Of a DNA stretch of 64,000 nucleotides, positions 2 through 15,443 are shown one piece after another. Both the position numbers and the translations under genes were made by a program. Under the pieces are notes generated by a model, which ran no database searches, had not been told where the DNA came from, and saw nothing but the letters and a program-made list of their open reading frames with translations. Origin of the DNA: Candidatus Thorarchaeota archaeon (GTDB taxonomy: Archaea > Asgardarchaeota > Thorarchaeia > Thorarchaeales > Thorarchaeaceae); assembly GCA_004524445.1 (NCBI GenBank), contig SDNP01000004.1, positions 1 to 64,000 of the forward strand, in the 5' to 3' direction. The stretch's first letter is position 1. Every line of letters starts with the position of its first letter.

Positions 2-1195
2 CGAGTTGAACATATCGCAGTCCTTTCAAGAAACGAGATTCTGTCAGGGCCAGTTGGCTTCGAGTGGAGATTTGCACCCGGTGAGATGGATGTAGAGGAT
101 TCAATGGGACGAATCGTAGCGATTCTAGACGAAAATGGGAGAGAAACGGCAAGCAAGAAGACTCCTAGAACAAGAATATCTGCTTCCGAGATAAGCACGA
201 ACATAGATTCTATCAGGGTACCAAAACAGATCCAAAGGGACGACAGGCTTTCTGGTTGGATGAGAATTACAAGAAATACAGTAGAGGGAGAAGCTGCTAT
301 TCTCGTTCTTAGTATCGAATATCCTGGAGAGTATGAACAAGTGGTAATGAGACAACCTCTAACCCAGAGAAAGAATCTTTCCGTTTCCTTTGGACCACTG
401 AATCTACCCAAGCCCCGTAGCTTGGGAGATGTGAATGAGTTTAATCTGCGAGCAAAGCTAGTCTATGCAGGAACAATCGCTGATGAAAGAGTTGTCAATA
501 TCCTGCTCACTGAATCGATTTCAAGCATTTTAAAAATCGAATACAGTGGCATATCCAGATTTGTAGAACCAGATGCAATGATAAACGGAGCAGTCCACAT
601 CGAAAACACATCAGATAATGAGATACTTGGAGAGCTTAGTGTTTCAGTGGAGGTCAAGAGCGAAGAGTTAGATCTTCTATCACGCAGAATAAGAATTAGT
701 CCCAAAGAGAACAAAGTCTATCCCGTCCCCTTCAGAATTCCAATTTTTGGAGGGATGACAACAGCCAAAATTCGGTCATTAGTTAGATTTCAGGATACTC
801 TTGTTACAGAAGAACGTAATCTCAAGATTAAACCGTTAGAAATGGCATTCTTTAGCCTAAAATATAGGCTACTTGACCAGTTGGGGAGGGACATTCCTGG
901 GCTTATTGCTAGAAACCAGAAGATTAGCATCGAAATTTGCGGCGTATCAAAATCGAATGCGGAAGATATATTCAGTATACGGCTGAAAATACTTTCAAAA
1001 GACAGCTTGGTGCAAATATTCGAAGCACCCTTGGATATTGGAGATAGTGGAGAATTCAAGGAAACTATTCAATGGGAAACACCAGATGTGGATACAGTAA
1101 CACCGTTCTATCTCGAATCTGAGATTCTTGAAAATGGTGTATCTATCCCCGAAAAAGGGCTAAATCAAAGAGATAAACATTTCACAGTGTATTAG
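2..1195 (+). CDS. Hypothetical protein with multiple Ig-like beta-sandwich domains (5'-truncated by window)
   Basis: Frame is open from position 2 (RVEHIAVLSRNE...). Alternating beta-strand patterns, e.g. AVHIENTSDNEILGELSVSV. Confidence 0.6.
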   Translation, partial: RVEHIAVLSRNEILSGPVGFEWRFAPGEMDVEDSMGRIVAILDENGRETASKKTPRTRISASEISTNIDSIRVPKQIQRDDRLSGWMRITRNTVEGEAAILVLSIEYPGEYEQVVMRQPLTQRKNLSVSFGPLNLPKPRSLGDVNEFNLRAKLVYAGTIADERVVNILLTESISSILKIEYSGISRFVEPDAMINGAVHIENTSDNEILGELSVSVEVKSEELDLLSRRIRISPKENKVYPVPFRIPIFGGMTTAKIRSLVRFQDTLVTEERNLKIKPLEMAFFSLKYRLLDQLGRDIPGLIARNQKISIEICGVSKSNAEDIFSIRLKILSKDSLVQIFEAPLDIGDSGEFKETIQWETPDVDTVTPFYLESEILENGVSIPEKGLNQRDKHFTVY

Positions 1196-4557: not shown

Positions 4558-5940
4558 TTGTCCGAAACGCGGAGGCTACTACTGGAGTTCAAGACGGAAG
4601 AAGTCGGAAAGCTTGCCAGAGAAAACAAGCAGACCAAAAAGGAGCTTGTAAAGGCGTTTTCTGATCCTTCAGAAGTTGTTAGAGAAAGAGCCCTAATTGC
4701 CGCCATGGATTTCGCGAGTCCAGAAATTGTGCCCGAGGTTGAAGAAGTATTATCAGACGATGATGCTGCTGAGGTACGAATTGCTGCTGCTCAAGCTTTA
4801 GCTTGGTATCAACAACCAAGATCGATTCCTACACTATTGCGTGGCTTGAAGGACCAAAATACCTGGGTAAAATCACATTCAGCAGCTGGTCTCTCCAAAT
4901 TGGTTAACGGACCCATTTGGGCTCGGGTAGACGAAGAAACAGTAGATACAATCCTAAATGGTTTTCCGGATATGACTGATGAACAGGTTAGAAATCTATT
5001 ATTGCGAATTGAAGCACGTTCGAATCAGATAGACAAATTCATGCGATGGCGTGAACAGGATTTCAATATCGAAATTGACGAGTCTGTTATTCAGGACAAA
5101 TTAGAAGGAAAGCCAATTCTCGTGAAGGAACCAAGACCTATTGATGTATCGGAAGAGAGAGATGACACTCTACCTAAGGGGCTTAGTCCAGAAGTTGAAG
5201 AGATATTGTTGGAGCTTCCCCCCCACATGAGAGATTCATTGCCAGAAGAGGACTTGGTACGGCTAAATCCAAAGAGTGCACGCGAGCTTGTGGATTCGCT
5301 TATCTCTTCATTCCCAGAGGGCGAGAAACCCAAAGAAAAGAAGAAAGCTGTCAAAGTTAGGAGAGTCAAAAGGGTCCGGAGAAAGAAGAAAGGACCAGCC
5401 AGAGAAGAGTTGATAGGTCAAATTCCAGACGAAGTTAAAGATTCGCTTCCAAAAGGAACTCTAGAAGGACTCTCAATAGAAGAACTTGAGGCACTGGTAT
5501 CAGCAGAATCAGAAGCTGCTATGCCAAAAGATATTGAAAAAGAAGTAACATATGAAGCAGAAGAAACAGTAGAAAGGAATTTGCAGAGCATTTCTGGTGT
5601 GGGACCCACCCTGGAAGCCAATCTTATTGAAGCGGGATTTGATACTATAGAAAAGATTGCAGCAGCAGATACCAAAGTCATTGAAAAAGAGGTCAATGGC
5701 TTGGGCTCTAAAGGCTCTGCAGACCTTGTTGCTAAGGCAAAACAGCATCTCGGTATTGCAGATGAAAAAGAAGAAGAAACATCAGACTCTGAACTTGTTG
5801 AGAAATATGGTAAGGAAAAAGCAGCCATTTTGTCACTGATGCCTGCAGGAATGCTGGCAGATATACCAGAAGAGCAAATCAAGGAAATGGATGTTGATAC
5901 CTTGAAGGATTTGGCAGACGCTCTAGAGCCAAAAGACTGA
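4558..5940 (+). CDS. HEAT-repeat protein with helix-hairpin-helix domain and three internal LP-containing helical repeats
   Basis: PBS/HEAT repeats (EVRIAAAQALA, WVKSHSAAGLS); HhH LQSISGVGPTLEANLIEAGFDTIEKIA...VNGLG. Confidence 0.75.
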   Translation: MSETRRLLLEFKTEEVGKLARENKQTKKELVKAFSDPSEVVRERALIAAMDFASPEIVPEVEEVLSDDDAAEVRIAAAQALAWYQQPRSIPTLLRGLKDQNTWVKSHSAAGLSKLVNGPIWARVDEETVDTILNGFPDMTDEQVRNLLLRIEARSNQIDKFMRWREQDFNIEIDESVIQDKLEGKPILVKEPRPIDVSEERDDTLPKGLSPEVEEILLELPPHMRDSLPEEDLVRLNPKSARELVDSLISSFPEGEKPKEKKKAVKVRRVKRVRRKKKGPAREELIGQIPDEVKDSLPKGTLEGLSIEELEALVSAESEAAMPKDIEKEVTYEAEETVERNLQSISGVGPTLEANLIEAGFDTIEKIAAADTKVIEKEVNGLGSKGSADLVAKAKQHLGIADEKEEETSDSELVEKYGKEKAAILSLMPAGMLADIPEEQIKEMDVDTLKDLADALEPKD

Positions 5941-5941
5941 G

Positions 5942-7231
5942 CTAGTCAGTTTCACGGATTACAACTGCAAACTCACTTGCTAGTCGGCCATACCATTCGA
6001 GAAGGTCTCTCATATTATCGACATGCCGATATGTTCCATTACCATATTGGGAAATAGCAAGCATTAGCTCTTCATCTATTTCGGCCCGCCCACCCAATCC
6101 AATACAATAGATTACAATTCTATTTCTATCTGGAAATCTTTCCTTCAACACTTTCAGCGGCGGCGGACCGGAAGTGGTCATGCCATCCGTAAGTAAAATT
6201 ATCATGGTAGGTTTCTGTTTGCCGCCAAAAGCCTCTAGGATATCCGCAGCTTTGGCAAGCGCATTTCCCATATCCGTTAAGGTTCCACCTTCTTCCACTT
6301 TATCAACAACATGAGTACTGATTATTTGGAGACCGAGCGATTTATCCTTGCCAGTGCATTCAACAAACGGTTGAACCTCTCCGGTTTCTGAATTCAGGAA
6401 AGTCATCTCTGATACGGTTTTTTCAAATGTGATGACTCCGACCTTTTCACCGTATCCGCGACCCACCTTTTCAGCTAGGTACAGAAGAACAGCCATTGCC
6501 GCAGCTTCTGCTCGGTTTACATTCTTTCCTTCCTCGAAACGATCCAAAAATGCTCGCACTTCTGGATTATCGCCGGCTAAATCCTTTAGACCCTCTCTTG
6601 CATGGGCGATATCTCGAACAGGAACATCTGATGTCTTCATAGAACCGCTTGTGTCAACACAAAGAATGGCGTTGAAGGGAGTAGCAATCCCCACAGTCTT
6701 GAATTGATAACCTGTTTTCTCCTTTAGCGCCTCGAAGGCAAGCTTTGCAAAACTCTGCCCAGTCAAAGAGGGTCGAGTATTTAGAATTTCAACCTTGACT
6801 TTCAGCTCTGGCCAGTTAAATGACATACCTGGGTATACAAGCCGTCCTCCAATCATAGATTCCAGAGAATCAACATTCTCGGCTGCTCGTGTGACCAAAT
6901 CATCGGTATTGGCCTCTTCCGCCAAGGGTTTCAGACCAAACTCAACATATTGGAGAGCAATCATGTCTTCATCGTACAGGCTGACCTCTACGATATCCCC
7001 TTCCATGAGCAAAGAGGCTTCCAAGACTAACATATCAACATGAATTTCTCCTTTGTCAACATCTTTACTCTTGCGAATTTCTGCAGCACCCCAGAATCCA
7101 CTCTGTTCCTCTTGGAAAATAACAATCGAGCCCAAATCCGCTCCCAAGTCTTTTGCCGTTTCGGGATTCAGCAAGGCAAAGCCTCTCAAATCCCCGCCAT
7201 CGATTATTTCCAAGTTCTTGTGTTTTGAGAT
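5942..7231 (-). CDS. CDC48-N/Ufd1-like double-psi-barrel + vWA domain protein
   Basis: N-term ALLNPETAKDLG...GDIVEV resembles the CDC48 N domain. The vWA MIDAS is intact (DTSGS, GGTLT, LLTDG). Start uncertain (ATC 7231 after GGAGG, or TTG 7213). Confidence 0.75.
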   Translation of the reverse strand: MSKHKNLEIIDGGDLRGFALLNPETAKDLGADLGSIVIFQEEQSGFWGAAEIRKSKDVDKGEIHVDMLVLEASLLMEGDIVEVSLYDEDMIALQYVEFGLKPLAEEANTDDLVTRAAENVDSLESMIGGRLVYPGMSFNWPELKVKVEILNTRPSLTGQSFAKLAFEALKEKTGYQFKTVGIATPFNAILCVDTSGSMKTSDVPVRDIAHAREGLKDLAGDNPEVRAFLDRFEEGKNVNRAEAAAMAVLLYLAEKVGRGYGEKVGVITFEKTVSEMTFLNSETGEVQPFVECTGKDKSLGLQIISTHVVDKVEEGGTLTDMGNALAKAADILEAFGGKQKPTMIILLTDGMTTSGPPPLKVLKERFPDRNRIVIYCIGLGGRAEIDEELMLAISQYGNGTYRHVDNMRDLLEWYGRLASEFAVVIRETD

Positions 7232-7304
7232 GGTTTGTTCCTCCGTTGGGATTCTAGGTACTCTGATAGAGATTATGGATATAAAACATGGTACGGTCTT
7301 CTCG

Positions 7305-8804
7305 TCATTCCATAATATCGTCAAGTTTTGATAACATAACAGCAATATTTTCGGCGGGTTGACTGTTGTCATGAAAGGCACGAAGTAGCGGATTATCAGA
7401 TGACATTGATGATTCAGCTAGCGTCATTAGAGATGGAAAAGGGCCTGATCCATGAATATTAAGTGATATGTAGTCATTTTGTTGCTGAGTAACCCAAAAA
7501 ATCAATTCTCTATCTGAATCTTCATGCCTAAAAGACAATACTTGCTCCTCAAGATCGATTCCAGAATACTTTCTTCGCTGGGACTGTTTGCTTGTCAGGT
7601 ATTTTTGACCAGACGGGGGCAAGTAATCTATGGATGTCAAGTCCCAACCACGTTTAAGGAGATGCTTCGTAACGGACATTGCAACAAAGGTGCTTTGTTG
7701 GTTGTCATCTTTGCAGATGATTTGTTGAGGAGCTAGATTCGTTTTGCGGTATGTCAATACGGGCCTATTGATGATCCTCAAGGCGTTACCTCCCAGAACA
7801 TTCTGGATATCGCGAGGCCCGCCCAGAAAGTCGCGTGACAGTAAATGCAGAATGAGTTCAGCTGCTTGTACTGAGAGAAACGAATAGTCTGTTCCAAAAA
7901 GAATCTTCTCAGACCAAATGTTGTTTCCAGCCCCCATTTGGTCGTGAGCGCTTTCAAATAACAGGGGTATATCCCGGTCATGCAAAGATGACGTGTCTAT
8001 AGAGAAAGACGAATCGTGCAGTATTTCATAGAGCTCTGATTTCCCTGGGCTCATGGCAGAGTGAGCTAGAATAATAGATGGAGAGAATGACGCATTATTG
8101 ATATCTTCCCTAATGGATTCTATGAGATTCCTTATTCTAATTGCCGTTCGAATATTCCGAGAATCAACTATGATGGGCATGCCCAATTTATACGCTTCTT
8201 GAACAATGCGTTTCATTTGATCGCTTTCAATAGAATCTAAAAATAATTGGGCGAGGGGATGAAGCTTTAGACCCCTCAGGCCCAGTTCAGTTGCAGATCG
8301 TCTAATCTCCTCCACGGGTGTTTGAGGCTCAATTGCTAGAGCGTCATTTGGGTCAACACGGCAAAACCCAATCAGTCTGGAGGAGTGAGGAGCCCTTGTG
8401 GTCCAACCTGCAATCTTGTCATTTGAAATTTTGAAAGAAGCAGTGTCATCATTCGTTCTACCAGAATAATCGTCGGTATAAGGAAAAGCAATTGTCCGAT
8501 CAACCAGCCAACCATGATTCCATCTGTTCCAGTTTCTTCTCAACTGGAATATTGATTTCTGAAGGGGAGGAGGGATAATCCGAATGGGCTCAAAGAGAAG
8601 TCTATCACTATCCTTCAGTTCCTTGGCAAGCTTCTTCAATTCAAACCAGAGAAGAGTATAAAATTCGTAAGCACTTGTGGGACTGTTACGATGGCTGCCT
8701 TCTTTTCCCATATGGTGATGTGCATCAACAATATAGAATTGATACACATCATCTTTTTTGACCCCATTGTCAGGATCATCGTCTAAGGCACGCACTCTCA
8801 GCAT
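7305..8804 (-). CDS. Amidohydrolase-superfamily (Amidohydro_2-like) metallohydrolase with C-terminal extension
   Basis: IVDAHHH, RLIGFCRVDP, GLRGLKLHP, IILAH and KILFGTDY motifs. Confidence 0.85.
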   Translation of the reverse strand: MLRVRALDDDPDNGVKKDDVYQFYIVDAHHHMGKEGSHRNSPTSAYEFYTLLWFELKKLAKELKDSDRLLFEPIRIIPPPLQKSIFQLRRNWNRWNHGWLVDRTIAFPYTDDYSGRTNDDTASFKISNDKIAGWTTRAPHSSRLIGFCRVDPNDALAIEPQTPVEEIRRSATELGLRGLKLHPLAQLFLDSIESDQMKRIVQEAYKLGMPIIVDSRNIRTAIRIRNLIESIREDINNASFSPSIILAHSAMSPGKSELYEILHDSSFSIDTSSLHDRDIPLLFESAHDQMGAGNNIWSEKILFGTDYSFLSVQAAELILHLLSRDFLGGPRDIQNVLGGNALRIINRPVLTYRKTNLAPQQIICKDDNQQSTFVAMSVTKHLLKRGWDLTSIDYLPPSGQKYLTSKQSQRRKYSGIDLEEQVLSFRHEDSDRELIFWVTQQQNDYISLNIHGSGPFPSLMTLAESSMSSDNPLLRAFHDNSQPAENIAVMLSKLDDIME

Positions 8805-8966
8805 TCTCTATTTCTTCCCTGCGCAGATTGGCTAAGGTAGGGGATGAGATAAATCATTGCCAGAGGAGGTATGTAAGAAATCCCCTATCAAGATAAATAA
8901 CCTAAATTAGGCACCGGAGATACGTAGACGTGTGTATATGGCTGTGATGGAGAGAATGAAGTCAGA

Positions 8967-11600
8967 ATGATTGTTGTTGAGGACAGGGATAACGGGGAGA
9001 TTATTAGGTTCTTTCTGGTGGATGCAAATGTCAACCTTGGATGTATTAAAGCAGGAAATCTAGAACAAGAATTCGGACCGGAAAGATTACTCAGATACTA
9101 TAATCATCTTGAAGATAGAATTTACGAATATGCAGCACGTTATCCCGATTCGTTTGCATATCTGCCAAGACAAGCTTACAGATACTTAATGCAACCAAAG
9201 GCTTTCAAAACAATCAGCACTGGTTCAATGGGCGAAACTGACCACATCTGGCTCGCAGACCAGTTTGTTGGGACAGCTTTATCAAGCGTGTCATCAAAAA
9301 GGCTCGATACAAAGCAGAGTATTGAAAACGCAAGAAAGGTGCAGAAGCTTGCCACGACCTCTAACTTTAGCATGAGACTATATGCGTTGAGCGACTTAGG
9401 ATTAGCATTATCAAAGGACGAACATTGGGGTTTGATCTCAGATGTCCATCTCCTAGAAAATCTGGATGATGCAGCACAAAAAATGCTGAAAAATGCTATT
9501 CGGATAAATCTGCCCATTTTTGTGCGTCTTCACAAGCAACAGGATATCACGAAGCTAGTTGCTTGGCTCATCTCAGTAAAAGAGAGAGGCTTAGAACCCC
9601 CAAAGGTCTTGTTGATACCTCATGTTCTCAAAAAATTCAATGATAATCTCCTACGATTACTAGATATTCCAAATACATGCTTAATCACTACAAATGCTTC
9701 GATATCCAATCTCTCGTCAGTCATATCGGGGCTAAAGAAGAATCATCCTCAGAATTGGGCTAAGAAACTGGCATTTGGAAGTGGCTATCCAGAAACACAA
9801 CGTGGAAACAGCCTCTCAGAAATAATCAGCTTCCTGCTCAGTAGGAACCTGGATTTAGATCACAGAGAACTGCAACTGATTCTTGGCGGCAATATGTTAC
9901 GTTTGCTTCCGGGAAGACCGCCTTTCTTGTCCTTCATTGAAACAAAATCGATGGTTCAAGCACGACAGCACTTGGGGAAAGTTGCCTCTGGAGAGATATC
10001 TAGAATCTTCCGCGTCATAAGACGAAAAGACATGCGGAGTTTCTGTTCGTGTGACTTCTTTCTTGAGGATGAAGGAGGAATAGTTGCGACCAACAAAGCC
10101 TTTCTCTCAGTCACAAAGCCAGGCGAAAAGATAGCAACAGGTATAGGATTGCTGACTGATCAGGAGGATGCCTTGGAGCTTCACGGATGGAACGAAGGAT
10201 TGTCACAATATGTAGATTCTCGAAATGCACAGGGATTCCTACAAACTATCGAGTCGTCGCTAGCCGCAAATACTAAGACTCTCACGGACATAAATGATTT
10301 GCAGGTTTTCACAGACAGAGTGCTTGAGTCACTGCGCATTGGTGCCGACGAAGATGTGGCATCATCGCTACACTTCATACTTGGAACTGGAGTTGAGGAG
10401 GGCATCAATGTGTCTTTGCACCCTCAAGATATGATAGCACTTGGTCTTGAAGAAGGTGACATCATCATAATTTTGGAGTCTAACTCAAGACGTTGGTGGG
10501 GAGCCAGAGCATGTCCCAACGAGCATTTGGACAAGCGACATCTTTCAACCTCAAGAAAGGTTGCAGAGATTCTCAACCTCAAGGAAGACTCAAGAGTAGA
10601 TGTGCTAAAATACGCGAGAGATGTATGTCATCCATCCGATGTGGTCGTGAAATATGATGCGCTTCCACAATCAGTCTCACCAATCCTTCCTTCCTTTTTT
10701 CATCTTCATGAATCGGCTATAGAAAATATCCTGGGCACTGTGTTTCTTGGAGAAGGTACCAATTACAAAGTAGTGATCGGAAATAGGAAAATAAATCTTG
10801 AATTGCAGAGCACGAAACCAGAAATGGAACCGGGCGATCTCTGTGATATAAAACACTCAGACATAAAATTCGTACCCAAATGCCTAATGGAAGAATTCAA
10901 TCTGATTATTTGTTTGGAAACTAGTGAGAGGATGGTAGTTAAGAATATTCCAATGAACGGCCCTGCTACAGTGAGAGCTCGTCTCAATGAGGGGAGGCTT
11001 CAGTCTGACGGTTTAAAAAAGCTGGAAGAGAGAATCCAAGAGCAAATCTCTATGGCAGACGCATCTATAGCTGCAATTCTGATTCTGTTAAATTCGATGG
11101 TTGAAAACAGAACGCTAGGTAGATTTTCGTTTCTTACATATGATAAGAAAATCCGGAAATTTACAATCCAGAAAGGACATGACTTAGACACATCTATCGG
11201 ATTCAAGACAGAATTTTCCGCGAAGGAAGTTAGGGACTCACTATTCTATTCTGTCATCGATTCCGCCCAAGAAATGATAGGAAGTTCTAACCCTGAACTG
11301 GTTCACAGAGCAGTTGCAGAGAGTTTAGAGGATTTTGGCTCTGACAGACCAACCTTAGTAATGGTCTTCGCATCGGAATGGAGCAAAGATGCAGAGGGAT
11401 CTCTGCCTTTTCTGAGGGCAATTTCGAAGAGTGAGAATTATCAAATAGATGTGTTTTTGCCAGAGCAAAATAAATTATCTAAGGGGCAATCAGGAAATAA
11501 TCTCAAGATATCATTCCATTCATTGGAGAGATTTTCACTTCATGAATTCGACAAGTATGTTCTAAAGACGGTGGATGAGCTACTGAAAAAAAGCACTTGA
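8967..11600 (+). CDS. Degenerate amidohydrolase + CDC48-N-like + degenerate vWA fusion protein
   Basis: Colinear similarity to both 7305-8804 and 5942-7231. HxH becomes NVN, FGTD becomes FGSG, DTSGS becomes ETSER. Confidence 0.75.
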   Translation: MIVVEDRDNGEIIRFFLVDANVNLGCIKAGNLEQEFGPERLLRYYNHLEDRIYEYAARYPDSFAYLPRQAYRYLMQPKAFKTISTGSMGETDHIWLADQFVGTALSSVSSKRLDTKQSIENARKVQKLATTSNFSMRLYALSDLGLALSKDEHWGLISDVHLLENLDDAAQKMLKNAIRINLPIFVRLHKQQDITKLVAWLISVKERGLEPPKVLLIPHVLKKFNDNLLRLLDIPNTCLITTNASISNLSSVISGLKKNHPQNWAKKLAFGSGYPETQRGNSLSEIISFLLSRNLDLDHRELQLILGGNMLRLLPGRPPFLSFIETKSMVQARQHLGKVASGEISRIFRVIRRKDMRSFCSCDFFLEDEGGIVATNKAFLSVTKPGEKIATGIGLLTDQEDALELHGWNEGLSQYVDSRNAQGFLQTIESSLAANTKTLTDINDLQVFTDRVLESLRIGADEDVASSLHFILGTGVEEGINVSLHPQDMIALGLEEGDIIIILESNSRRWWGARACPNEHLDKRHLSTSRKVAEILNLKEDSRVDVLKYARDVCHPSDVVVKYDALPQSVSPILPSFFHLHESAIENILGTVFLGEGTNYKVVIGNRKINLELQSTKPEMEPGDLCDIKHSDIKFVPKCLMEEFNLIICLETSERMVVKNIPMNGPATVRARLNEGRLQSDGLKKLEERIQEQISMADASIAAILILLNSMVENRTLGRFSFLTYDKKIRKFTIQKGHDLDTSIGFKTEFSAKEVRDSLFYSVIDSAQEMIGSSNPELVHRAVAESLEDFGSDRPTLVMVFASEWSKDAEGSLPFLRAISKSENYQIDVFLPEQNKLSKGQSGNNLKISFHSLERFSLHEFDKYVLKTVDELLKKST

Positions 11601-11626: not shown

Positions 11627-12742
11627 TTATTCAAAAATTCGCGTTCTGTGAATTTCCCTAGATATGACTCTTGTGCCATAGAGGACTTCAACCTTGACAG
11701 TTGCCTTACTGGGCTTGTGAATCATTGGTACTAGATTCACTTTGATTTCTCTTGTTGACCGCCGAGCAATTTCATGTCGTTCGTTTGCCATTTCACTGAC
11801 TCCATCTTCGGTCACAAGTGATGCTACAATCCTTATGGAAATAGTAGACACGCTGGGATTCTCAAGTTTCATAGAATATGTAAAACCCTTGCCCGCGACA
11901 AGTGCATCAGGAACGCGCCCCAATTCAACCCTTACGCCCAATTGCTCAGTATTCAATGGTCTACCCTTGGGCCAACGAGGAATTCGCTCTAGCTCCATTA
12001 GCCTAGAAATCGAAATCTTCAGTTCTCGAACAGATAAATCCAATTCCTTTGCTGCATGTCCTATATCGAAAACCCCGTCTTTTGTTTGGTAATATGCCAT
12101 TACCCGACGGTCAATCTCAATAAGGTCGCCCACCCCTTCCAGTATTTCCAAGATGGCAGCTGGTAACTCGTCTGCTTGATTCAATGAGTAGTATTTTCCA
12201 TCTTTGGAAGCTGAGGCAATAGCCTTGAATGAGGATTCTACGAGGGGGTTACAACCACATACAAAAACAAAGGCAGTTTCTCCATAGGATTTCTTGAATG
12301 CTCTTATCTCCTCCTTGGGATCATAATCGTTCGGGCAGCCTTTGGGGAAGTAATCATCTCCTAGAGAATTATAATCACGGCCGTGGGGCGGTGCATCTCC
12401 TACAAGCAATAGAGCTTTATAGGCATCACGCGACCAAGACAATTCAACACGTGCATCATGGATTGCATCCGCAACTGCCTCCGGGGTATCCCCACCTTTC
12501 GATGGGTCGAGCTTCGATATTGCCCTGTGAACTTTTTTGATATCTTCAGTAAAATCAAATATGCGGGTCACGTAGGTTTTATCTTGAGGGGGATGGTCCC
12601 TGTATGATACAATCGCAAATCTAATTGTTAGTTTCTCCGTTTCTGAAGCAATTGAATCAACAATATCAAACAGCGAATCTCTGACCGCATTTATGTCGTC
12701 CTTCATTGAACCGGTTGAATCCACTACAAAGGCAACTTCCAT
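11627..12742 (-). CDS. vWA domain protein with winged-helix and C-terminal Ig-like domain
   Basis: VAFVVDSTGSM, YRDHPPQD, GGDTPEAV, LVGDAPPHG; HTH-like FDIGHAAKELDLSVRELKISISRL; GGAG RBS before ATG at 12742. Confidence 0.85.
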   Translation of the reverse strand: MEVAFVVDSTGSMKDDINAVRDSLFDIVDSIASETEKLTIRFAIVSYRDHPPQDKTYVTRIFDFTEDIKKVHRAISKLDPSKGGDTPEAVADAIHDARVELSWSRDAYKALLLVGDAPPHGRDYNSLGDDYFPKGCPNDYDPKEEIRAFKKSYGETAFVFVCGCNPLVESSFKAIASASKDGKYYSLNQADELPAAILEILEGVGDLIEIDRRVMAYYQTKDGVFDIGHAAKELDLSVRELKISISRLMELERIPRWPKGRPLNTEQLGVRVELGRVPDALVAGKGFTYSMKLENPSVSTISIRIVASLVTEDGVSEMANERHEIARRSTREIKVNLVPMIHKPSKATVKVEVLYGTRVISREIHRTRIFE

Positions 12743-12872
12743 TTTGACTCCGCTTAATTCAATCCACTCCGAAGGTGTAGGTTGAGTCTTTACAATTAAG
12801 GATTTGGCGTAAGTAACTTCCAAAGAAGATTTTAGGGGCGAGCAACGGAGATAGCTAACAGTGGAACCCAAT

Positions 12873-13256
12873 ATGAGTGAGAGTGACGTCCCGATTGAAA
12901 TTTCATTTGAGAATGGTCTAGTACTGAACGCAACCATGGATAGGGTTCAAGCGCCCTTGATTGTTGAAGACATTAAATCTATGCTACCCTTCGAAGGAAA
13001 GGCAGTCCTAATGAGGGGGGAAATGAAAATAACACTCGGAATCAATCGAGGTAATGCAAAACCAACGAAAAATGTCAAAAAACGGGATATTGCATATATG
13101 CCTCTCGGAGATTCGATTTGCATATACTTGGAAGATATGAAGACGTTCAGTCCAGTGAATATCATTGGTAGCATTGTTTCCGATGAAGAAGATGTCAACA
13201 AGCTTAGAGAAGTTCGCCGAGGGAGTTCAGCCACACTTAGGGCTGCTGAAGTTTGA
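12873..13256 (+). CDS. Cyclophilin-like fold protein (DUF369/TM1367-like)
   Basis: LPFEGKA, DIAYMPLGDSICIY and SPVNIIG motifs. Confidence 0.75.
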   Translation: MSESDVPIEISFENGLVLNATMDRVQAPLIVEDIKSMLPFEGKAVLMRGEMKITLGINRGNAKPTKNVKKRDIAYMPLGDSICIYLEDMKTFSPVNIIGSIVSDEEDVNKLREVRRGSSATLRAAEV

Positions 13257-13272: not shown

Positions 13273-13824
13273 TCAAAATTTCTGAATGTTTCGTAGAATA
13301 GCTTCGTTTCTATTCCTTTCAACTTCGGATGGGTCAACTATCATACCAGGTTCATATGTTTCAATCACAGTTTCGACTCCTGAGTCAGCAACTTTCTTGA
13401 AGCCTCTACCAGAGAGGGATCGAATTCGCAGTTGGCATGTATCGAATTCAGTTCTCCCTTTCGCAGTGACAGGCTTTGTATCCATCCGTAAGCGAGACTT
13501 AGTCCGCCGTAGGGTTTCTTTTGCCTCCGCAAGCTCAACTTGAATTTTTTTCCGAGACTCTCGTTCCTTTTCTAACTCAGCCTTGATAGTTTCGTAATCA
13601 GATTTCTTCACGAAATCTCTGGACTTGTCAATCCATGTTACGGTTGTCCCATTATATCGTCGGTCGGTGTCTACCCGGTCCATGGCCTTAAGAATTGCTA
13701 TCACATCGTAGACCCGCCTCTTTGCCACACCCAGCTGGTCTGCAATAATATCGCTTCGAATCCCGTCCTCTCCGTTTTCCTTCAGCAAATCAATAGATTT
13801 GCGAGCAAGCTCAACCAGTTTCAA
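13273..13824 (-). CDS. E2F/DP-like winged-helix transcription factor with coiled coil
   Basis: LVELARKSIDLLKENGEDGI...IADQLGVAKRRVYDVIAILKAM...VTW matches the E2F/DP DNA-binding domain pattern (RRxYD), followed by a heptad coiled coil. TTG start after GGGGTG. Confidence 0.75.
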   Translation of the reverse strand: MKLVELARKSIDLLKENGEDGIRSDIIADQLGVAKRRVYDVIAILKAMDRVDTDRRYNGTTVTWIDKSRDFVKKSDYETIKAELEKERESRKKIQVELAEAKETLRRTKSRLRMDTKPVTAKGRTEFDTCQLRIRSLSGRGFKKVADSGVETVIETYEPGMIVDPSEVERNRNEAILRNIQKF

Positions 13825-13924
13825 GAGTGCACCCCACGCAGTTCCGAATCTGACTTCCAACATACAAGAAGTCATCTAGATATTTCTATTGAGCCTGTAT
13901 TTAGGTGTTTGTGTTGTATGTGTC

Positions 13925-13977
13925 GATTTTTCGAAGGATGATTTGTTTTCGAAAAATCCACTTTCCGATTTATCGAA
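13925..13977. promoter_or_regulatory. Candidate operator: three copies of GATTTWTCGAA (11-bp inverted repeat plus a third copy)
   Basis: gatttttcgaa 13925-13935 (+), exact reverse complement 13948-13958, gatttatcgaa 13967-13977; in a divergent intergenic region. Confidence 0.5.
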
Positions 13978-14111
13978 AGGATTCTTTGTGGCTGTTTAGA
14001 AGTCTCTTTATCTTAAAGCTCACAGAGATAGCATACCGGCAATTTCTTAATGTGCCCTGGGGGTTTCAGTTCAGTTCTCGCAGATGCAAGCCGCTTGATG
14101 GTGAAATTACC

Positions 14112-15443
14112 ATGAGTAAAACTAAAGTTATCATAATGGGTGCTGCTGGTCGCGATTTTCATAACTTCAATGTCTTTTTCCGTGATAATGAAGACTACGA
14201 GGTAGTTGCATTTACAGCAGAACAAATTCCAGGAATAGGCGATAGAAAGTATCCCCCCGAATTATCTGGCAATCTTTATCCAAATGGGATTGAAATCTAT
14301 CCAGAAGAAAAACTCCCCGAGTTGGTCGAGAAGCATGGAGTGGAGCAATGCATCTTAGCATATTCAGATCTATCGTATGAGACCGTCGGGCATAAGATTG
14401 CCCATGTCAACTCGCTCGGAGCGGACATCCGACTCATGGGCACAAGCACAACCATGATTGATAGTAACAAACCACTGATAGCTGTGTGTGCAGTCAGAAC
14501 CGGGTGTGGAAAGAGTCAGACATCAAGAAGGGTCAACCAGATACTTGTGGATATGGGATTGAAGCCTGTCAACATCAGGCATCCTATGCCATACGACCCG
14601 GATTTGACAACTCAGATTTCTCAGAGATACGAGGAACTCTCTGATCTAGATAAGTACAATTGTACGATTGAAGAGAGGGAAGAGTACGAGCCCATGATCA
14701 ATATGGGGGTCATTCTCTACGCTGGAGTCGATTATGGAAAAATACTCACAGAGGCAGAAAAAGAGGCGGAAATAATTACATGGGACGGAGGCAATAATGA
14801 CTTCCCGTTCTATAAGCCAGATCTTCTGATTGTTTTGGCTGATCCCCATAGACCAGGTCATGAAATATCGTACTATCCGGGGGAAACAAATCTGAAACTC
14901 GCTGATGTGGTGATAATAAACAAAGTAGAAACTGCAGACTATGAGGATGTGGAACTTGTTCGCAATAATATCATGAACGTCAATCCTGATGCAATAATCA
15001 TTGATGCTGCATCACCGCTCATTATTGAGGACACCAGCAAGATTAGAGGGAAGAAAGTTCTTGTTGTGGAAGATGGTCCCACAGTCACTCACGGTGGAAT
15101 GCCATATGGGGCGGGATACATTGCCGCCAGAAAGGTTGGTGCAAAAATTGTTGATCCACGACCGTTTGCTGTGGGAAGCATAAAGGACACTTTCGAGAAA
15201 TTCCCGCATCTTGAAGATGTTCTACCAGCGATGGGCTATGGAAAGGAACAGATGGAGGAGCTCGAGGCAACGATTGACAAGGCTGATGTCGAAGCAGTTG
15301 TAATAGGGACGCCCATTGATTTGGCGAGTCTAATCAACATCAAGAAGCCTCATGCCAGGGTTCAGTATGAACTGCAAGAGATAGGCAAGCCCAACCTAGA
15401 AGATATTCTGAAGGAATTTGTTGAGAAACATAATTTGAAGTAA
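14112..15443 (+). CDS. Cyclic 2,3-diphosphoglycerate synthetase-like P-loop protein (COG2403 predicted GTPase)
   Basis: MGAAGRDFHNFN, AVRTGCGKSQT, RHPMPY, CTIEEREEYE, WDGGNNDFPF, VEDGPT motifs. Confidence 0.8.
   Translation: MSKTKVIIMGAAGRDFHNFNVFFRDNEDYEVVAFTAEQIPGIGDRKYPPELSGNLYPNGIEIYPEEKLPELVEKHGVEQCILAYSDLSYETVGHKIAHVNSLGADIRLMGTSTTMIDSNKPLIAVCAVRTGCGKSQTSRRVNQILVDMGLKPVNIRHPMPYDPDLTTQISQRYEELSDLDKYNCTIEEREEYEPMINMGVILYAGVDYGKILTEAEKEAEIITWDGGNNDFPFYKPDLLIVLADPHRPGHEISYYPGETNLKLADVVIINKVETADYEDVELVRNNIMNVNPDAIIIDAASPLIIEDTSKIRGKKVLVVEDGPTVTHGGMPYGAGYIAARKVGAKIVDPRPFAVGSIKDTFEKFPHLEDVLPAMGYGKEQMEELEATIDKADVEAVVIGTPIDLASLINIKKPHARVQYELQEIGKPNLEDILKEFVEKHNLK

Follow-up and report, generated by a model that had tools for sequence, protein, structure and literature searches.

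A catalytically dead fusion paralogue beside a metal hydrolase and a Cdc48N-vWA protein in Asgard archaea

The first 64,000 nucleotides of contig SDNP01000004.1 of a Candidatus Thorarchaeota archaeon (assembly GCA_004524445.1, forward strand; this whole stretch is referred to below as the window) raise the question of why a genome should keep a long gene that looks like two of its neighbors joined into one. Three open reading frames (ORFs) are involved: 5942-7381 and 7305-8804, both on the minus strand, and 8967-11600 on the plus strand, the last coding for 877 amino acids. The two minus-strand genes encode a protein with a Cdc48 N-domain-like part followed by a von Willebrand factor A (vWA) domain, and a metal hydrolase of the Amidohydro_2 type (together, the live pair); the long plus-strand ORF (the fusion) resembles first the hydrolase and then the vWA protein. 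A preliminary description of the locus had proposed that the fusion arose by inverted duplication, is catalytically dead, and serves the live pair as a scaffold or regulatory subunit. We consider it near certain that the 877-residue ORF is an ancient, dead and selectively maintained fusion paralogue, of single origin, of a real enzyme/adaptor pair; as to its role, we somewhat favor the view that it is an accessory of a larger module, non-catalytic and acting by binding or regulation (a reader, sensor or decoy), and not an obligatory subunit of the live heterodimer.

The relationship of the fusion to its two neighbors is already visible in BLASTP, where residues 484-817 of the fusion (P0003) align with residues 71-413 of the vWA protein (E 3e-11, 21% identity, 352 columns) and residues 264-326 with residues 297-355 of the hydrolase, at the end of its barrel (E 4e-6). 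The motif pairs on which the preliminary description had based a colinear alignment are all found in the translations, and the colinearity itself is borne out by these pairwise matches as well as by profile-profile comparison of orthologue alignments containing 25 fusions (A1), 21 hydrolases (A2) and 20 vWA proteins (A3): in hhalign, fusion residues 5-415 correspond to hydrolase residues 7-460 (A1 vs A2, E 6.4e-27), and fusion residues 474-852 to vWA protein residues 10-398 (A1 vs A3, E 4.3e-29). The hydrolase-type match extends past the barrel, to residue 415 of the fusion and 460 of the hydrolase, and includes an S..D motif that is kept at positions 361/363 and 391/393, respectively. The paralogy with both neighbors is real: it follows the same order and runs from end to end, the alpha/beta domain behind the barrel included. 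It has no Pfam match at E <= 1 and none in NCBIfam, and the homology of its barrel shows by profile-profile comparison only.

The AlphaFold2 (AF2) model of the fusion, with a mean predicted local distance difference test score (pLDDT) of 85.9 and a predicted template modeling score of 0.68, divides into four parts, all encoded on the plus strand. Residues 1-320 (8967-9926) form a pseudo-amidohydrolase barrel, of which residues 14-317 match Amidohydro_2-type TIM barrels with a VIA Z of 18.2 to 3cjp_B (217 aligned residues, root-mean-square deviation (rmsd) 3.0) and of 17.5 to 4dlf. The alpha/beta middle domain at residues 321-470 (9927-10376) corresponds by homology to the domain at the C-terminal end of the live hydrolase. 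Residues 471-640 (10377-10886) are predicted to adopt the fold of a Cdc48 N-domain, a double-psi barrel plus a beta-clam; the region ~470-640 matches p97/CDC48 N domains in Foldseek (E ~1e-10, ~175 columns, target-normalized TM-score (TMt) 0.6-0.67), and there is a hidden Markov model match to a designed double-psi beta-barrel (E 0.005). Residues 641-877 and the stop codon (10887-11600) make up a pseudo-vWA domain, with residues 638-877 showing the vWA alpha/beta fold (VIA Z 16.6-16.2).

What is missing from these folds is their metal sites. In the live hydrolase, H29, H31, H182, D214, H248 and D306 are invariant in the 21 orthologues and in the Loki-, Heimdall-, Jord- and Freyarchaeial copies, and the residues of the metal ion-dependent adhesion site (MIDAS) of the live vWA protein (D203, S205, S207, T329 and D359, in a DxSxS...T...D pattern) are invariant in the Thorarchaeaceae and in the Loki, Heimdall, Jord and Frey orthologues. 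The HxH motif, the histidines of strands 5 and 6, the aspartate of strand 8 and the DxSxS/T/D MIDAS are all lost in the fusion and in 25 of 25 fusion orthologues; for HxH, Asp and the MIDAS, the loss had been noted in the preliminary description. The window fusion has N-V-N at the HxH site, glycine at the strand-8 Asp site and ExSxR at the DxSxS site, and the MIDAS Thr and Asp are gone; its orthologues carry other non-MIDAS residues, and the five canonical ligand positions vary among fusions with no new fixed set of residues. When 1.84 billion cluster representatives were searched with a profile, only 164 relatives appeared at E <= 0.001. Ten further full-length fused representatives were inspected, including distant 'Candidatus Asgardarchaeia' forms, and all ten are equally dead. 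In total, 35 fused sequences from Thor-, Jord-, Frey- and Asgardarchaeia were examined, with not a single live one among them. Together these replacements support the view that the fusion is catalytically dead in both halves.

Two candidates for a fused live pair were rejected. Open frames of 948-979 amino acids in some genomes turned out, on ORF calling, to be two same-frame genes with a stop codon between them, and the 1012-residue vWA protein of genome G161 gives E 0.39 in hhalign vs A2, its N-terminal 600 residues being unrelated.

Despite the loss of both sites, the gene is under purifying selection. The frame that the preliminary description had found intact is full-length and stop-free in about 78 of the 85 genomes of the family, and also in the sister family f2, in Jordarchaeales (f7) and in Freyarchaeum (f21). 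The ratio of nonsynonymous to synonymous substitution rates (dN/dS) between the window genome and a congener (G000/G001) is 0.196 for the fusion, 0.141 for the hydrolase and 0.032 for the vWA protein; for the pair G003/G018, at a dS of 0.24-0.32, the corresponding values are 0.171, 0.098 and 0.041. A dN/dS of 0.17-0.20 means purifying selection, and not neutral evolution, for the fusion. The constraint is strongest in the dead barrel, where 21% of columns reach an identity of at least 85% between genera (dN/dS 0.14), and weakest in the Cdc48N-like part, with 4% of such columns and a dN/dS of ~0.3. This order is the reverse of that in the live proteins, of which the Cdc48N-vWA protein is the most tightly constrained: between Thorarchaeial genera, identities are 76-84% for the live vWA protein, 43-50% for the live hydrolase and 25-33% for the fusion. 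The dead barrel retains 20 of the 96 positions that are invariant in the live copies, a subset of the core and pocket residues other than the ligands, including D19, G25, W95, D98, R137, W264, F270 and the C-terminal LLS...ILGGN helix. As a homologue of an enzyme that has lost its catalytic residues and is maintained by purifying selection, the fusion is a pseudoenzyme by definition, and a double one in its single chain.

A maximum-likelihood tree of the Cdc48N-vWA half places 11 fusions (from Thorarchaeia, f2, Jord- and Freyarchaeia) apart from the 14 live proteins, which come from five Asgard lineages, across a single branch with support of 100/99. The end branches of the fusions measure 0.26-2.75, compared to 0.07-0.15 for the live Thorarchaeial proteins; the topology fits one old duplication-plus-fusion event, with long-branch effects possible. 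A distance of 8-12 kb separates the fusion from the live pair, and from a ligase gene described below, in Jord- and Freyarchaeia; the fusion is on the same strand as the pair in both genomes compared for strand, whereas the head-to-head layout of fusion and pair, with a spacer of 60-160 bp, is kept across Thorarchaeales. Because of the same-strand layout elsewhere, head-to-head is a Thorarchaeales arrangement and not the mark left by a local inverted duplication; this part of the preliminary description is not supported, the fusion being one old clade across several Asgard classes. In the scenario that we propose instead, the duplicate of an adjacent hydrolase-vWA gene pair would have lost its intervening stop and become a single gene. 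This would have happened once, before the split of Thor-, Jord-, Frey- and Asgardarchaeia, and the fused gene would then have shed every metal ligand.

The live pair is the better characterized side of this relationship. The hydrolase gene (7305-8804, minus strand) encodes a barrel at residues 1-345 followed by an alpha/beta C-terminal domain, and the protein passes the Pfam threshold for Amidohydro_2 (28.9 bits vs a cut-off of 26.4). The vWA protein has a complete, invariant MIDAS motif and matches Pfam VWA_2 (E 9.6e-11, 42.7 bits vs a cut-off of 27). In its AF2 model (pLDDT 84.5) the vWA part matches classical vWA domains with a Z of ~21, and the N-terminal part matches the p97 N domain (Foldseek TMt ~0.7), with weak profile matches to the N-domains of AFG2 and VAT (E 0.0075-0.016). 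The frame of this gene is open up to a GTG at 7381; the starts of its orthologues fit a TTG at 7213 (MEIIDGG..., 423 amino acids), which most likely is the true start, so that the gene occupies 5942-7213 on the minus strand. A start at 7261 was ruled out, as the codon there is GTA and not a start codon. Alignments A3 and A4, the vWA model and the complex described below include 16 additional residues at the N terminus (pLDDT 39); the conclusions are unaffected.

Genes for the hydrolase and the Cdc48N-vWA protein are adjacent or co-clustered in Loki-, Heimdall-, Jord-, Frey- and Thorarchaeia. We made one complex prediction, of the live hydrolase with the live vWA protein from alignments A2 and A3, alongside three controls. 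The interaction prediction score from aligned errors (ipSAE) is 0.76 for the pair (0.73, 0.77 and 0.76 in individual runs) versus 0.00 for the best control; in calibration, 58 of 80 solved complexes and 2 of 110 mismatched pairs attained that mark. Contact agreement is at least 86% and the pLDDT of the partners at least 78. On the hydrolase side the predicted interface consists of the loops that directly follow the catalytic residues, i.e. the active-site face of the barrel, and comprises hydrolase residues 33-55, 113-134, 184-189, 216-220, 251-254, 273-281 and 309-315. On the partner, one flank of the vWA domain takes part as well as the Cdc48N-like lobe, and the MIDAS residues are outside the contact list. 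The interface positions are more conserved than the remainder in both live families (Mann-Whitney p 0.04 and 0.006). As we are aware of no comparable solved complex, recall of a known structure is unlikely. The model thus predicts a heterodimer in which the vWA protein, as an adaptor, docks onto the barrel at its catalytic face.

The fusion is independent genetic evidence, of the Rosetta stone type, for the hydrolase and the adaptor as a physical pair, and the inference drawn on this ground in the preliminary description, that the two act together, is in line with both the gene adjacency in five Asgard lineages and the predicted binding.

As a side observation on the adaptor, the Lokiarchaeial orthologues are longer, at ~700-770 amino acids (e.g. 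L056:14680-16845, plus strand), and have an N-terminal extension of ~300 residues with its own weak CDC48_N match; they may therefore carry two N-domains.

The preliminary description of hydrolase, vWA protein and fusion as a triad had, however, overlooked a third partner. A protein of 977-1399 amino acids with an N-terminal match to GCS2 (PF04107), a family of carboxylate-amine ligases, adjoins the hydrolase/vWA pairs of Heimdall-, Jord- and Freyarchaeia. The gene order is hydrolase, ligase, vWA in a Heimdallarchaeon and vWA, X, ligase, hydrolase in family f24, and in a Lokiarchaeon a shorter ligase version of 583 amino acids stands immediately before the hydrolase; overall, the ligase is ~1100-1400 amino acids long in Thor, Jord, Frey and Heimdall lineages, and ~565 in Loki. 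The Thorarchaeial orthologue from the same genus as the window (L065:1851-5279, minus strand, 1142 amino acids) matches the pair-adjacent Freyarchaeal ligase at E 1e-111; it passes the Pfam GCS2 cut-off of 21 with 22.7 bits, over a short stretch only, and its nearest solved relative is YbdK (1r8g, E 1e-4). In the window genome a break in the assembly divides the gene of this GCS2/YbdK-like carboxylate-amine ligase of ~1142 amino acids. The last 397 residues are encoded at 2-1195 (plus strand), truncated by the contig start; the N-terminal part lies at G000:C26:842-2251, where an N-terminal frame of 753 amino acids ends contig C26. With the two halves at the start of the window and at the end of C26, this contig probably joins the left end of the window.

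We counted the live vWA protein (E <= 1e-45) and the N-domain of the ligase (E <= 1e-60) over 400 Asgard genomes. The two were found in 74 and 72 of 85 genomes in family f1 and in 107 and 105 of 135 in f9; both occur in 16 of 22 genomes in f18, in 12 of 12 in f20, in 5 of 5 in f7 and in 6 of 6 in f21, and both are absent from all genomes of f5 (0 of 31), f12 (0 of 19) and f14 (0 of 12). As related genomes are not independent, these family counts are to be read as a pattern and not as a statistic. Judged by homology, gene order and co-occurrence, the live pair and the GCS2/YbdK-like ligase form an Asgard-wide module, found in most of the sampled Loki-, Heimdall-, Thor-, Jord- and Freyarchaeial genomes. 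Our search of the literature on Thorarchaeota and Asgard archaea, vWA proteins, amidohydrolases, carboxylate-amine ligases, DEPDC5 and pseudoenzymes turned up neither the fusion nor the trio, as the preliminary description had supposed for the architecture as a whole; a module of putative ATP-dependent amide ligase, metal hydrolase and MIDAS adaptor was not found in any paper.

The genomes of Jordarchaeales (L061/L063) and Freyarchaeum (L060/L062) each hold two full sets of hydrolase and vWA genes with a convergent ligase gene; besides these they have the dead fusion and one more adaptor paralogue, the third, which stands alone. With two complete sets per genome, the module has been duplicated as a unit.

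What, then, could the fusion be doing beside this module? Because residues of its barrel have been retained and its linkage to the module has been conserved, with the fusion surviving the loss of the enzymes, we suggest an accessory role. The fusion would bind, without cleaving it, the substrate or product of the ligase and hydrolase, or a partner common to them, and so would serve the pathway as a non-catalytic sensor, reader, decoy or regulator, with enough function of its own to outlast the live enzymes.

Several observations weigh against this proposal. Gene-order conservation within a single archaeal family is weak evidence of function. Genomes G004, G011 and G016 (97, 98 and 95% complete) have an intact fusion and neither a live hydrolase nor a live vWA protein; the ligase is also not found in G011 and G016, and only a short, diverged version is found in G004. 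At least some role of the fusion is therefore independent of the module. Finally, the equivalents of the live interface positions show no preferential conservation in the fusion (p 0.81 and 0.97), and its internal arrangement may differ from that of the live complex.

The strongest competitor, which we nonetheless hold to be unlikely, is the role suggested in the preliminary description: the dead fusion as a scaffold or allosteric subunit in a hetero-oligomer with the live hydrolase, the adaptor or both, co-expressed from the shared divergent control region, in the manner of prozyme-type pseudoenzyme partners. That enzymes pair with dead paralogues is well established. The head-to-head layout with its short spacer is kept in Thorarchaeales, and the fusion remains at most 12 kb from a live pair in Jord- and Freyarchaeia. 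In the one sister comparison of this kind, the fusion end branch is 1.05 in G004, which has lost the pair, versus 0.59 in G019, which would fit a relaxed constraint after loss of the partner. However, a general acceleration of the fusion after pair loss was considered and rejected, since there is a single clean sister pair and similarly long branches occur in lineages that keep the pair. Furthermore, an obligatory subunit sits badly with the three nearly complete genomes that have the fusion without the pair, and with the Loki and Heimdall lineages, where the trio is present and the fusion is absent. The fusion has also not conserved the positions that correspond to the predicted live interface, which makes an exchange of paralogous interfaces unlikely.

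The same fusion-only genomes speak for a further alternative, namely that the fusion has a new job unrelated to the module and that its neighborhood is nothing but inherited gene order. In G011 and G016 the gene has survived the loss of the pair, of the ligase and of a second vWA gene next to it; its pattern of constraint, with the barrel tighter than the Cdc48N-vWA part, is the reverse of that in the live proteins; and a neighborhood of 20 kb is syntenic in the family as a whole, so that synteny alone says little. We regard this reading as improbable, because the closeness to the pair and the ligase has been kept in three Asgard classes in spite of rearrangement, and because genomes without any module gene (G012, G014 and genus g12) also lack the fusion. 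The converse case in family f1, a pair without a fusion, is limited to the fragmentary genome G347.

That the fusion is still an enzyme, with other catalytic residues or a different metal site, is very improbable: the barrel is its most conserved part, and D19, D98 and two tryptophans on the catalytic side have been kept, but the five ligand positions vary with no new set of residues becoming fixed, and no Pfam or NCBIfam family is matched. Finally, a decaying pseudogene or an annotation artefact can practically be dismissed, as the fast evolution of the fusion between genera and the in-frame stops of one genome, G349, stand against full-length frames in most of the family and in three other classes, a low dN/dS, a confident AF2 model and a conserved TATA-like box upstream. 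In G349, the fusion match (C3:785286-787923) contains an in-frame TGA and TAG and the ligase match (C3:772613-773674) a TGA, with the live vWA gene intact; this could be real decay of fusion and ligase, or an assembly error.

Comparison with known systems helps to place the accessory that we propose and the live pair. The (beta/alpha)8 barrel found in the live hydrolase, and also in the first third of the fusion, is that of Amidohydro_2 (PF04909), with a Z of 15-18 to 3cjp, 4dlf, LigI (4d8l/4i6k), LigW (4icm) and ACMSD (2wm1); the HxH/His/His/Asp metal site is kept in the live enzyme and its ligands are absent from the fusion, and both Asgard proteins differ from this family by the extra alpha/beta domain after the barrel. 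To our knowledge, docking of a Cdc48N-vWA protein onto the active-site face, as predicted for the live enzyme, has been reported for no member of the family. With the classical MIDAS-containing vWA proteins (ITIH1 6fpy, alpha2delta, BatA/BatB 3ibs, TFIIH p44 4wfq, Rpn10 and Rea1) the live protein shares both the fold (Z ~21) and a complete MIDAS, whereas the fusion shares the fold (Z 16.6) but its MIDAS is destroyed; in contrast to these proteins, the Asgard live protein and the fusion are cytoplasmic, with a Cdc48 N-domain preceding the vWA domain. Compared with the N-domain of p97/CDC48/VAT (PF02359), the Asgard proteins have the same two-lobed fold (Foldseek E ~1e-10, 171-193 columns, TMt 0.6-0.76), but a vWA domain comes next and not an AAA+ ATPase, and the Pfam score for PF02359 is 14.4 against a cut-off of 35.1.

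The closest parallel in domain order is the N-terminal domain (NTD) and SABA domain of DEPDC5/Iml1 (Sea1), in GATOR1/SEACIT, where a Cdc48/NSF-N-like domain is likewise followed by a vWA/Sec23-trunk-like domain. The DEPDC5 NTD has been likened to the N-domain of Sec18/NSF, and the SABA domain to Sec23 (review PMC8534245). When the model of the live Cdc48N-vWA protein is searched with Foldseek, DEPDC5 chains from cryo-electron microscopy take ranks 1-4 (E 3e-12 to 8e-12, 432-463 columns, over the full model); yeast Iml1/Sea1 also ranks high, and p97 N-D1 chains give a much worse rmsd. The query-normalized TM-score of the DEPDC5 match is 0.36-0.38 with an rmsd of ~10 A, which weakens this likeness. 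By rigid-body Z, DEPDC5 is outside the top 50 for the live model and classical vWA domains are favored; no DEPDC5 chain is among the 60 best of 90 PDB profile matches (A4, E <= 10), and there is no IML1 Pfam match at E <= 1. Liu et al. (2020, bioRxiv 10.1101/2020.10.19.343400) reported NPRL2-like longin proteins in Thorarchaeial genomes and no DEPDC5 homologue. The Asgard protein (423-439 amino acids) also differs in ending after the vWA domain, with no SHEN, DEP or C-terminal domain to follow, and the SABA domain of DEPDC5 is not known to us as a MIDAS metal site. Judged from the models, we take the likeness as an architectural resemblance, a lead rather than demonstrated homology or membership.

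Pseudoenzyme paralogues that partner or regulate their active relatives are familiar from the trypanosomatid AdoMetDC prozyme and from Rpn8/Rpn11. The fusion is similar in being a dead paralogue beside active relatives that is kept by purifying selection, but it is an unusual case: here two different proteins have been copied, fused and both inactivated, and the product, long kept, outlives the active genes in some genomes. As a natural, non-catalytic, single-chain version of the complex, it could be useful for ligand fishing and for structural work.

Of the ligases of the YbdK/GCS2 type (PF04107; 1r8g, 1tt4), the putative module ligase is a candidate member, which scores above the GCS2 cut-off and has YbdK as its nearest solved relative. 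A ligase together with an amide hydrolase recalls, by analogy, the writer/eraser pair of the Pup ligase PafA and the depupylase Dop, although the Asgard candidate for the eraser is a TIM-barrel hydrolase and not a paralogue of the ligase. Carrying this analogy further, and as a long shot, one can imagine that the trio performs reversible amide-bond marking or sensing: the ligase would write, the hydrolase would erase and the MIDAS adaptor would hold a carboxylate-bearing target, with the fusion, as a one-chain version of the eraser complex, being a reader that binds the mark but could not take it off, and the adaptor an archaeal forerunner of the DEPDC5/Iml1 NTD-SABA. DEPDC5/Iml1 is the scaffold of GATOR1, a eukaryotic nutrient-signaling complex, and no known prokaryotes are closer to eukaryotes than Asgard archaea; conserved Asgard gene sets such as this trio may point to unexplored cell biology.

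The spacer between the hydrolase and the fusion (8805-8966, 162 bp) contains two back-to-back TATA-like boxes. On the minus strand, the box at 8849-8859 reads CAATGATTTAT and lies 44 nt ahead of the hydrolase ATG; its pattern, ATAAAnnATT[GC], recurs on the hydrolase strand at a distance of 25-44 nt from the start of that gene in 12 of the 17 orthologous spacers, compared to a background rate of 0.057 per kb. The plus-side box at 8892-8902, GATAAATAACC, precedes the fusion ATG, and in most other genera a second box, (G/T)GCATATATC, is found ~40-47 nt ahead of that ATG. By analogy with archaeal promoter architecture, we infer that the two boxes are back-to-back promoters. With two separate conserved boxes and no single common element, the shared bidirectional promoter of the preliminary description is not what the spacer holds.

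Downstream of the fusion and convergent on it, the minus-strand gene at 11627-12937 encodes a second vWA protein (Pfam VWA_4/VWA), which is syntenic across the family at ~60% identity. Its orthologue is missing exactly in the three complete genomes without the live pair (G004, G011 and G016), with only paralogues of ~35% identity elsewhere; the second vWA protein may be a further module member in Thorarchaeaceae. In some genomes a further vWA gene of 380-390 amino acids directly follows it (L014:3540-4682, L016:3626-4801).

Of the other genes nearby, the one at 13905-15443 (plus strand) encodes a 512-residue protein with ~80% identity across Thorarchaeial genera and no family match except a faint one to CobW/HypB-type nucleotide-binding proteins (E 0.003). 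An E2F/DP-type winged-helix protein (Pfam E2F_TDP, E 1e-8) is encoded at 13273-13875 on the minus strand, beside three copies of the E2F-like motif GATTTWTCGAA at 13925-13977; the 8805-8966 spacer lacks the motif, which is no more frequent in the window as a whole than expected by chance. On the other side of the locus, a HEAT-repeat and helix-hairpin-helix protein is encoded at 4558-5940 (plus strand), convergent with the live vWA gene and ending a few bases away from it in all Thorarchaeial genomes. In the fusion-only genomes this HEAT-repeat/helix-hairpin-helix gene becomes the immediate neighbor of the fusion.

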